Below are positions 43,804-46,800 of a stretch of DNA of 64,000 nucleotides, in pieces; position 1 is the first letter of the stretch; every line of letters starts with the position of its first letter. The stretch comes from Escherichia coli (lineage in GTDB: Bacteria; Pseudomonadota; Gammaproteobacteria; Enterobacterales; Enterobacteriaceae): NCBI RefSeq assembly GCF_003334305.1, contig NZ_QOWS01000002.1; one strand, given 5' to 3'. The position numbers are program-made.

Positions 43804-46800
43804 TAATCTTTTTTGCTTGAAAAATAAAGTCTTAGCGTTCTGCGTTAAGACTTTTTTCATGGGTGCCAGATACAAAAAAGGCCGCAGGCTGTTACCCCTG
43901 CGGCCGGTTTCGGGCGCATATTGCCATCACGGCAGCCTGACGCCCGTTTTCACCTTACTTCCGGTTACGCCACCAGCCGACAATCGCTGCGGTAATAATC
44001 CCCGCCAGGATCGGTGCTGCCAGGTCGTGCCAGAAAATCATGGCAAACTTCGCGAGCGTCATATAGCCGCCTTGTTGTAATGACAACATTTTGCGGCTAT
44101 TCTTGAATTGTTGATGGTTCAAGATTAGCCCCCGTTCTGTTGTCAGGTTTTACCTCTCAACGTGCGGGGGTTTTCTCTTTCCAGCAACCAATGCCACCAG
44201 GGATAAAGCCCCCGCAACATTGCGCCTCACCGGATAATTCCGGCTTGGTGTGGATACTACGTCTCAATTCATCTTCACTTCATCCCTGAAATGTTTGCAA
44301 TGAAGAGTGCATTCCGGTTTTTCAACAGCTGTTACAGTCGTTTCATGAGGGCTCTGGATGATGCTTCCAGCTCGGGTTGCCAATATTTACTTGTGGAAGA
44401 GATAAAGACAAAAATGGCCGCAGGCTGTTACCCCTGCGGCCGGTTTCGGGCGCATATTGCCATCACGGCAGCCTGACGCCCGTTTTCACCTTACTTCCGG
44501 TTACGCCACCAGCCGACAATCGCTGCGGTAATAATCCCCGCCAGGATCGGTGCTGCCAGGTCGTGCCAGAAAATCATGGCAAACTTCGCGAGCGTCATAT
44601 AGCCGCCTTGTTGTAATGACAACATTTTGCGGCTATTCTTGAATTGTTGATGGTTCAAGATTAGCCCCCGTTCTGTTGTCAGGTTTTACCTCTCAACGTG
44701 CGGGGGTTTTCTCTTTCCAGCAACCAATGCCACCAGGGATAAAGCCCCCGCAACATTGCGCCTCACCGGATAATTCCGGCTTGGTGTGGATACTACGTCT
44801 CAATTCATCTTCACTTCATCCCTGAAATGTTTGCAATAAAGAGTACATTCCGGCTTTTCAACAGCTGTTGCAGTGGTTTCGTGCAGGTTGTGGTACAGGC
44901 TCGCAATTCTGATTAACGAGCTGTCCAGGTAGTATGAAGAAATACAATAAGCAGGAATTTATCTTATCTCCCCCGATTTCCGTCATCGGAGGAGATATAA
45001 CTGTCAGGCAAATATCGTCATCAAATAGGCGGCAAACAGTGCCAGATGCGCTGCGCCATTGAGCACGTTAGTACGTCCGGTGGAGAAGGAGATATGGCAC
45101 AGCACTAAAGAGGCCACCATCACCACCATTTCTGGCGCACCAAGTGCAAACTGTAATTCGTTACCCGTCATAAAGGCAATTAGCGTGACGACAGGTACGG
45201 TAAGCGAAATGGTTGCTAACACTGAACCAAAGAACAGATTCATCGCGCGCTGGACCTGGTTGTTCAACACTGCTTTTAACGCACCTAAACCTTCCGGCGA
45301 CAGAATCAACAGAGCCACCAGGAAGCCAGTAAAGGCGACAGGGGCATTCATGCTGTCGAGCAATGTCTCCAGCGGGCTGGCATTCATTTTGGTGACTGCA
45401 ATAACGGCAATCAGATGGATAATCAACCAGATAGCATGCCACACGCTGCTATGGGCAGACGGTTTACCGTGATGCGGGTCATCGTCATCACTGTCATCTT
45501 CGTGCTCGTAGACAAACAAACTTTGATGCGTTTTGGTCTGGATCAGCAAAAATACGCCATACATTGCCGCAGAAATTAATGCTACCAGTAACGCCTGACC
45601 GGTTGAAAAATTCGCCGCAGGCAGAGCCATTGGAAATACCAGTACGATTATCGCCAGGGGGAACAGCGCAATTAAATACTGCTTGATACCAAACAGATTC
45701 ATATATTGGGTGGCAAACTTACGACCGCCCAACAATAATGAAAAGCCAACCAGCCCACCGGTAACAATCATAATGATTGAATAGAGCGTATCACGCATTA
45801 GCGTTGGCGCGGCGTCGCCGGTTGCCATTAAAGCTGAAATCAAACTGACTTCAAGAATAACCACTGAAAGGCTAAGAATAAGCGAACCGTAAGGTTCTCC
45901 CAGGCGATGGGCTAATACGTCCGCATGACGGACAACACTAAAGGCGCTACTTAAAATACCAATAAGCGCAAGAAGATTGATGGCAATGACCACTGGTAGT
46001 GTCTGGCTGCTTCCCCACAGGAACAGCACTACCAGCGCCAGAACCGGGAAAATAAGCGAAGTCTCCTTGTGGCGGGTTTTTACCGCCTCTTGAGCATTTG
46101 ACATTATGGTTATCCCTTTGCAGATGAATTTATCGAAAATGTAAAAAATAGGTAGGAAAAATAACAGAAAGTGTCTGGATATCGGTAACATTTTACGAAT
46201 TTTTACCCCACTGTCGATTTTTTACTCATTGGGACATAAAAATAAGTATTACGTTTAGACAATGTTTGTTTTAGCGTTTCTTAAGAACAGTCTGACATGA
46301 AAATTCTTATGTTTTGGCAAGAGTAGATATTGTTGACCACACTTAATGTTCAACTTTGTAAAAGGAGTCAACGATGCCGTATAAAACGAAAAGCGATCTG
46401 CCGGAAAGCGTAAAGCACGTTCTACCGTCTCATGCCCAGGATATCTATAAAGAAGCGTTCAACAGCGCATGGGATCAATATAAAGATAAAGACGATCGGC
46501 GTGATGACGCCAGTCGCGAAGAAACCGCGCATAAAGTGGCCTGGGCTGCTGTGAAGCATGAATATGCCAAAGGGGATGATGATAAATGGCATAAAAAATC
46601 GTAAAACCGGTAGCTTAGTTAAAGCTATTCGTGCGGTGTTGCCTTGCAAGTGGTCCGTGGATTGCATATTGTCCCGTTAGTGGTTTCAAAATGAGCAGTA
46701 AAAATGTCCGGAAGACACCAAAAAGTTGTCGCAGGGAAGTATGCAGTGGCGGAGGTGTAAGGTGATAACGCGTGATTTCTTGATGAATGCCGATTGTAAA

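Follow-up and report, generated by a model that had tools for sequence, protein, structure and literature searches.

Two tandem Ldr/Rdl toxin–antitoxin units with identical cores between kdsA and chaA of Escherichia coli

In Escherichia coli K-12 the interval between kdsA and chaA holds a long direct repeat (LDR) locus, known from Kawano et al. 2002 (summarised in PMC4147584 and PMC8309996). As a preliminary description of the DNA studied here had stated, and as the annotation of K-12 MG1655 confirms, three units are found there, namely ldrA, ldrB and ldrC with rdlA, rdlB and rdlC. Here, a stretch of 64,000 nucleotides from another E. coli strain (assembly GCF_003334305.1, contig NZ_QOWS01000002.1), hereafter the window, was analysed at the same interval. 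We conclude that the region is very probably the chromosomal LDR locus with two tandem Ldr/Rdl units, a common natural allele, and that its unit 1 has probably had the inner part replaced by that of unit 2.

Toxicity and Rdl repression were demonstrated for K-12 LdrD/RdlD and for LdrA (PMC4147584, PMC8309996, PMC12643268). Overproduced LdrD kills and condenses the nucleoid, and co-expression of RdlD brings relief (PMC4147584); nucleoid condensation by LdrD is also reported next to a drop in ATP caused by LdrA (PMC8309996). LdrA is a single-pass inner-membrane peptide, and ATP falls within minutes of its induction (PMC8309996, PMC12643268). It was termed a pore-forming toxin by authors who presume the formation of the pore (PMC12643268). 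Repression by RdlA acts at the translational level, and both LdrA and LdrD are neutralised by YajC (PMC8309996, PMC12643268). The antisense RNA covers the 5′ untranslated region (5′ UTR) of the toxin mRNA, but neither start codon nor ribosome-binding site (PMC4147584), and two reviews left the mode of repression unexplained (PMC4147584, PMC8309996). As related in PMC4147584, Gerdes and Wagner put forward an untested proposal according to which ldr translation is coupled to that of a leader open reading frame (ORF), ldrX. Furthermore, the protein p19 captures double-stranded RNA of ~21 nt from the ldrD-rdlD overlap, RNase III is involved, and mutation of rnc alters transcript stability (PMC7373196). 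That Ldr loci have been duplicated and lost in a lineage-specific manner was noted by Fozo et al. 2010 (PMC2887945).

The kdsA-chaA interval of the window is occupied by a direct repeat with a start-to-start spacing of 536 nt, which is composed of the following parts:

43872–44345 (no strand), LDR unit 1, portion with a counterpart in unit 2, from self-comparison and unit alignment
44346–44407 (no strand), inter-unit junction (internal tail) of ~62 nt, present n−1 times in an n-unit array, from unit alignment and census
44408–44881 (no strand), LDR unit 2, portion with a counterpart in unit 1, from self-comparison and unit alignment
42952–43806 (+), kdsA (3-deoxy-8-phosphooctulonate synthase), left flank, an ORF colinear with kdsA of K-12 and ZH177
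45004–46104 (−), chaA (Na+/K+:H+ antiporter), right flank, an ORF with coordinates transferred from the ZH177 annotation

The repeat search of the window matched 43872–44171 to 44408–44707 with 100% identity over at least 300 nt, and comparison of the window with itself at an offset of 536 gave an exact run of 422 nt (43880–44301), which is far beyond chance inside 64 kb. A single mismatch occurs at 43879, and to the right of the exact run the homology continues with 6 scattered mismatches up to ~44345. The homologous part therefore amounts to ~474 nt per unit, past which the sequences are unrelated; the ~60 nt at 44882–44940 represent the chaA-side flank and do not repeat 44346–44404. Tandem Repeats Finder returned no rows because the period exceeds its maximum of 500. 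The two-copy repeat with a period of 536 nt, as claimed in the preliminary description, is thus borne out by two comparisons. With sirB1-kdsA-[ldr/rdl]n-chaA-chaB the genes follow the same order as in annotated E. coli genomes, and the period together with colinearity with K-12, ZH177 and others places the array among the tandem ~530-nt units of the LDR locus.

Each unit carries on the minus strand the identical 35-codon ORF and a terminator hairpin, both of which had been noticed before and were recovered in both units:

43955–44062 (−), ldr-1, encoding the 35-residue Ldr toxin MTLAKFAMIFWHDLAAPILAGIITAAIVGWWRNRK, stop codon included, from ORF, Pfam PF13940 and RefSeq identity
44491–44598 (−), ldr-2, encoding the same 35-residue toxin MTLAKFAMIFWHDLAAPILAGIITAAIVGWWRNRK, from ORF and Pfam PF13940
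43880–43905 (−), ldr-1 intrinsic terminator hairpin GGCCGCAGG-loop-CCTGCGGCC, followed by TTTTTTG to ~43870, from the terminator scan
44416–44441 (−), ldr-2 intrinsic terminator hairpin, from the terminator scan

The peptide belongs to the Pfam family Ldr_toxin (PF13940), to which it aligns with residues 1–35 on model positions 1–35 of 35 (E 3.3e-24, 85.1 bits). It also matches the LdrD structure PDB 5LBJ (E 3e-10) and is exactly WP_000170926.1, a coding sequence in ZH177, MEI1O2-23 and RM9387 to which PGAP gives the name 'type I toxin-antitoxin system toxin Ldr family protein'. Both hairpins contain 9 pairs, 8 of them G-C, with a T run behind.

On the opposite strand and in the leader of each toxin gene further elements were located:

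44111–44176 (+), rdl-1, antisense antitoxin RNA Rdl including a stem-loop terminator, from Rfam RF01813
44647–44712 (+), rdl-2, Rdl antisense antitoxin RNA, from Rfam RF01813 (83.6 bits)
44075–44103 (+), putative Rdl-1 promoter TTGTAA-17 nt-TATTCT (8/12), read by eye, overlapping the Shine–Dalgarno/AUG region of ldr
44254–44259 (−), putative ldr-1 −10 box TAGTAT (TAGAAT in ldrD), at which the homology between ldrA-C and ldrD begins
44143–44220 (−), 25-codon upstream ORF of unit 1 (MLRGLYPWWHWLLERENPRTLRGKT), ldrX candidate, from ORF and comparison with K-12 ldrD and ldrC
44679–44756 (−), 25-codon upstream ORF of unit 2, ldrX candidate, from ORF

In both units the Rfam rdlD model RF01813 is matched over its full length (model 1–66 of 66) with 83.6 bits, the gathering threshold being 50. 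The fold of rdl-1 (−27.3 kcal/mol, z −4.5) contains the expected stem-loop terminator, and the terminator scan reports a terminator-like site at 44152–44171 inside it. Encoded on the opposite strand, Rdl begins 48 nt upstream of the ldr AUG (47 nt for K-12 ldrA/rdlA) and is antisense to the 5′ UTR 48–114 nt upstream of that AUG, without overlap with the ORF or the ribosome-binding site. The units hence show the arrangement of an Ldr/Rdl module, with Rdl over the 5′ UTR and upstream of ribosome-binding site and AUG. The cis-antisense Rdl of the preliminary description is therefore present, although its target has to be corrected to the 5′ UTR, and the assignment of Ldr/Rdl type I units to the kdsA-chaA interval is upheld by Pfam, Rfam and synteny alike.

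The putative Rdl-1 promoter implies a start at ~44110–44111, which fits both the Rfam match and rdlA as annotated in K-12. Starting at the TAGTAT/TAGAAT box, the ldrA-C type and ldrD share a conserved ldr 5′ UTR, and with the box at 44254–44259 and the terminator at 43880–43905 an ldr mRNA of ~370 nt with a predicted 5′ end near 44247 is suggested. The 25-codon upstream ORF is preceded by a GAGG box before its ATG (44220–44143), and its last 12 codons lie under Rdl. In K-12 ldrD the length and the stop position of the corresponding ORF are the same despite local sequence divergence; a 1-nt deletion shifts its frame in K-12 ldrC. This candidate would fit the ldrX idea, and RNA structure would explain its conservation equally well. 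No NCBIfam model matches the 25-residue product. Extensions of ldr from an in-frame upstream TTG (44122) or ATG (44089) were considered as leader or long forms and rejected for lack of conservation, since they are broken by a 1-nt indel in K-12 ldrA-C and by an ACG plus an indel in ldrD.

With respect to the K-12 units ldrA-rdlA, ldrB-rdlB and ldrC-rdlC, the window agrees in position, orientation, unit length (535–536 nt), terminator, 66-nt Rdl and ldr-rdl spacing, and the 35-residue toxins of ldrA-C share 33–34 of 35 residues with the window peptide. The differences concern the number of units, three in K-12; the toxin allele, since both window units carry the K5/G29 form (WP_000170926.1) that is absent from K-12; and the divergence within the array, as neighbouring K-12 units differ at 9–13 positions whereas the window units are identical over 422 nt.

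In order to judge the copy number, the internal junction (44335–44425), which occurs n−1 times in an n-unit array, was used as census probe. It was found in 4066 of 5426 complete E. coli genomes at 6525 chromosomal places (median 2, maximum 6 per genome). In an evenly spaced sample of 60 junction-bearing genomes 22 contained one, 37 two and 1 three junctions. An independent spread sample (n=60) queried with 3.3 kb gave 17 two-unit, 14 one-unit and 28 three-or-more-unit genomes, the three-unit reading having been checked. Both samples combined suggest that ~25% of the genomes have no more than one unit, ~28% have two, ~45% three and 1–2% more; these are rough values because the collection of complete genomes is clonally biased. 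The two-unit genomes include E24377A, 55989, O104:H4 2009EL-2050, ECOR29 and O157:H7 strains, and the two-unit arrangement with exactly the junctions and flanks of the window is present in ~1500 complete genomes of many lineages. Copy number between kdsA and chaA is thus polymorphic, so that two units need no special explanation and are not evidence of an assembly collapse. The suggestion of the preliminary description that two copies mean a strain-specific contraction or a collapsed assembly relative to K-12 is consequently not supported. It had named beforehand relatives with exactly two units as the finding that would speak against it; such relatives exist for the array (ZH177 and others), and the closest relatives by flank carry one unit. 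Variation in copy number very probably arises by unequal homologous recombination.

The one feature that sets the window apart is that its two unit cores are perfectly identical; the Ldr/Rdl system, its place and its copy number are already known or common. An alignment of 15 units from seven arrays revealed recurring core haplotypes. MEI1O2-23 carries alpha (Q5), beta (K5) and gamma (Q5/T9), ZH177 alpha followed by beta with the terminal tail, and RM9387 beta followed by gamma; TUM12355 has a single alpha/gamma mosaic unit, and in HBUT-L the order of the units differs. In the window both units possess the beta core, and unit 1 retains the kdsA-side flank and the first-unit-type internal tail GAGGGCT. 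ZH177, ECOR29, E24377A and 55989 share with the window the flanks, the junction and unit 2 of their two-unit arrays, and differ in unit 1, which there encodes the Q5 peptide and deviates at 7 positions (44000–44248) where the window has the unit 2 state. For ZH177, which is 99.8% identical over 3.3 kb with identical flanks, these seven differences are located at 44000, 44050, 44113, 44114, 44238, 44239 and 44248. All of them fall in unit 1 (ZH177-type alleles T at 44000, G at 44050 and C/G/A at 44238/44239/44248), and each window base equals the unit 2 state.

Since unit 1 keeps its first-unit-type tail, the pattern corresponds to a patch and not to a single crossover. Its most likely cause would be gene conversion of unit 1 by unit 2, with a predicted tract of at least 249 and at most 422 nt (at most 43880–44301). 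Among neighbouring cores of 13 other multi-unit arrays from complete genomes, all 17 pairs differ at 8–16 of 422 positions, and the window at 0; ETEC6335 and O157 NE122 are left out of this comparison because the hairpin pattern of their unit 1 was missed. Given the two-unit LDR allele, gene conversion is in our view somewhat favoured as the best explanation of the core identity.

The genomes closest to the window over 24 kb are TUM12355, WL164, FCI51 and strain 41 (99.9%), all with one unit. TUM12355 differs from window positions 30000–54000 outside the array by one substitution (47967) in ~23.4 kb. As the markers of its unit differ, the window array is not a duplication of that unit. The LDR array hence turns over much faster than its surroundings.

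We consider it about an even chance that the identity of the units is real and reflects a very recent conversion within the array over 249–422 nt, in which a Q5 Ldr and its Rdl variant were replaced by the K5 version of the neighbour. As inter-unit differences in various strains are concentrated at the 5′ end of Rdl (44108–44117), such conversion may periodically erase a diversification that partly insulates neighbouring pairs from each other's antitoxins. In the 15 aligned units, 6 of ~21 variable columns of the 422-nt core are found within these 10 nt (44108–44117 / 44644–44653), which are at the same time the matching stretch of the ldr 5′ UTR; this variation could tune which Rdl acts on which ldr mRNA.

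A probe of 141 nt (44225–44365) was tried as a diagnostic for a beta core joined to a first-unit tail and was rejected as not specific. Its single 100% match was to HBUT-L, where it falls in a middle unit of another type (T9/S29), and this indicates only that such mosaics occur. Further Ldr peptide alleles occur in other arrays, among which those of MS 21-1 and E22 were considered, namely A26V, A4T, H12D (in CX15/MLI023K1) and A7T (in WP8-S17). MS 21-1 has two units with identical peptides and cores that differ at 9 positions.

Several observations weigh against the reading as a two-unit LDR allele with a converted unit 1. The nearest relatives by flank, TUM12355 and the three others, carry a single and differently mosaic unit, so that the history of the array in this lineage is resolved in part, and on sequence grounds conversion looks the same as the merging of near-identical repeats by an assembler. 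The copy-number shares suffer from the clonal bias mentioned above. No NCBIfam hidden Markov model matched the 35-residue Ldr peptide, and the promoter consensus scan of both strands gave 0 matches, for which reason the ldr and Rdl promoters, as weak consensus fits, are derived by eye and from conservation. Transcription, toxicity and repression of ldr/Rdl in the source strain are likewise predictions from sequence.

The strongest competitor to a converted natural allele is an assembly artefact, which we regard as rather unlikely. Thereby a longer array would have been collapsed to two units, or two ZH177-type units with their 7 differences would have been merged by bubble-popping or polishing and written twice. 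A repeat longer than short reads is a classic site of such errors, and the assembly CP010441 may be an example of collapse. The core identity over 422 nt, unmatched in the 17 neighbouring pairs, points in the same direction, as does the fact that an identical array was found in no complete genome, the best reaching 99.4%. Mosaic units are, however, common at the LDR locus of finished genomes (TUM12355, HBUT-L, RM9387 and MS 21-1, the last with two identical peptides), from which it follows that real exchange between units is frequent. Moreover, at the junctions and in both flanks the window agrees exactly with true two-unit arrays, and a false duplication of the single unit of the nearest lineage is contradicted by its different markers.

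More improbable still is a recent loss of one unit by homologous recombination from a K-12-like three-unit array in this strain. Three units are present in K-12 and ~45% of complete genomes, and single-crossover deletions clearly happen: the ZH177-type array equals alpha, beta, gamma of MEI1O2-23 minus one unit, with the crossover in 44138–44301, and the CP010441 assembly, labelled 'K-12 MG1655', shows two units with a chimeric ldrB/ldrC gene. This second ldr (NZ_CP010441.1, 1281–2350) has G29 as in ldrB and I9 as in ldrC, with a crossover that falls, in window-equivalent positions, between 43978 and 44018; the arrangement stems either from a genuine ldrB x ldrC deletion in that stock or from a collapsed assembly. 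But the occurrence of the same arrangement, with its exact junctions and flanks, in ~1500 genomes makes any contraction old and shared and not strain-specific, and the change may have run from 3 to 2 or from 2 to 3. The mosaic patch in unit 1 cannot be given by one crossover, the unit haplotypes are not those of K-12, and the closest flank relatives have one unit and not three, which argues further against the contraction that had been suggested.

The notion that the mechanically open plus-strand frames of 87 (43817–44080) and 79 residues (44377–44616) are real protein-coding genes has next to nothing in its favour apart from their moderate length and a duplicated C-terminal stretch of 68 residues, as they are antisense to the ldr coding sequence and terminator, start in non-homologous flanks (43817 next to the terminator of kdsA, 44377 within the junction between the units) and hence have no conserved start, lack annotation in every RefSeq record inspected at kdsA-chaA and match no NCBIfam model, and are best read as artefacts, just as the preliminary description had held.

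By analogy with the published systems each unit of the two-unit LDR allele would work as follows. The minus strand would be transcribed into the ~370-nt ldr mRNA with a long 5′ UTR, encoding a 35-residue single-pass inner-membrane peptide. Upon overproduction this peptide would collapse ATP and membrane integrity and condense the nucleoid, as published for homologues and transferred to the K5 allele by analogy. The plus strand would give the 66-nt Rdl, which is perfectly complementary to the ldr 5′ UTR and would keep the toxin untranslated, and the ldr-Rdl duplex would be a substrate of RNase III. As Rdl lies off the ldr ribosome-binding site, repression must be indirect. The route may be coupling to the leader ORF, as in the published proposal, in view of the conserved 25-codon ORF that ends under Rdl.

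Two described systems are more distant. The fourth K-12 LDR, ldrD-rdlD beside bcsG, shares a homologous toxin (5LBJ, E 3e-10), the 5′ UTR with the Rdl region and the 25-codon upstream ORF, and differs as a single copy at another locus, outside the window, with diverged promoter region and peptide. The hok/mok/sok system is likewise of type I with a long 5′ UTR and an antisense RNA off the ribosome-binding site of the toxin, and the proposed leader-ORF coupling was modelled on mok (PMC4147584); the window toxin is, however, a Pfam Ldr_toxin and not Hok, and Rdl covers the 3′ end of the candidate leader ORF and not its start. Membership in hok/sok was rejected, since the Rfam sok match reaches 27 bits against a gathering threshold of 59 (E 0.003). 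This sub-threshold match lies at 44060–44213 (−) and 44596–44749 (−), over the ldr 5′ UTR and ending at the ldr AUG, and hints at a hok-like leader architecture. An enterovirus CRE match in Rfam (E 0.9) was discarded as sub-threshold.

For annotation, both ldr genes and both Rdl RNAs should be included and the 87- and 79-residue plus-strand ORFs dropped. K-12 is unsuited as the 'expected' copy number at the LDR locus, as E. coli commonly carries one, two or three units. At this hotspot of recombination, strains can have different arrays despite 1 single-nucleotide polymorphism in 23 kb of flank, so that the locus is ill suited as a phylogenetic marker and assembly errors are likely there. The window gives no new handle on the mechanism of Rdl repression and, beyond correct annotation, matters little.

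Some minor observations were made in addition. Just past the kdsA stop an A/T-rich inverted repeat, AAGTCTTA...TAAGACTT followed by TTTTTT (43827–43857, +), is probably the kdsA terminator, which the terminator scan missed because of the few G-C pairs in its stem. On records typed as plasmid, the 3.3-kb query matched LDR sequence at 29 places and the internal junction did so at 12. An IS200C lies inside the array of strain YL03, and in HBUT-L an ISVsa5 element abuts a shortened chaA. The other gathering-level Rfam matches of the window, a C0299 sRNA (112.5 bits), an RtT RNA (134.2 bits) and one tRNA, are ordinary E. coli features and are located as follows:

5415–5493 (+), Rfam-matched RNA feature
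60842–60973 (−), Rfam-matched RNA feature
61023–61104 (−), Rfam-matched RNA feature

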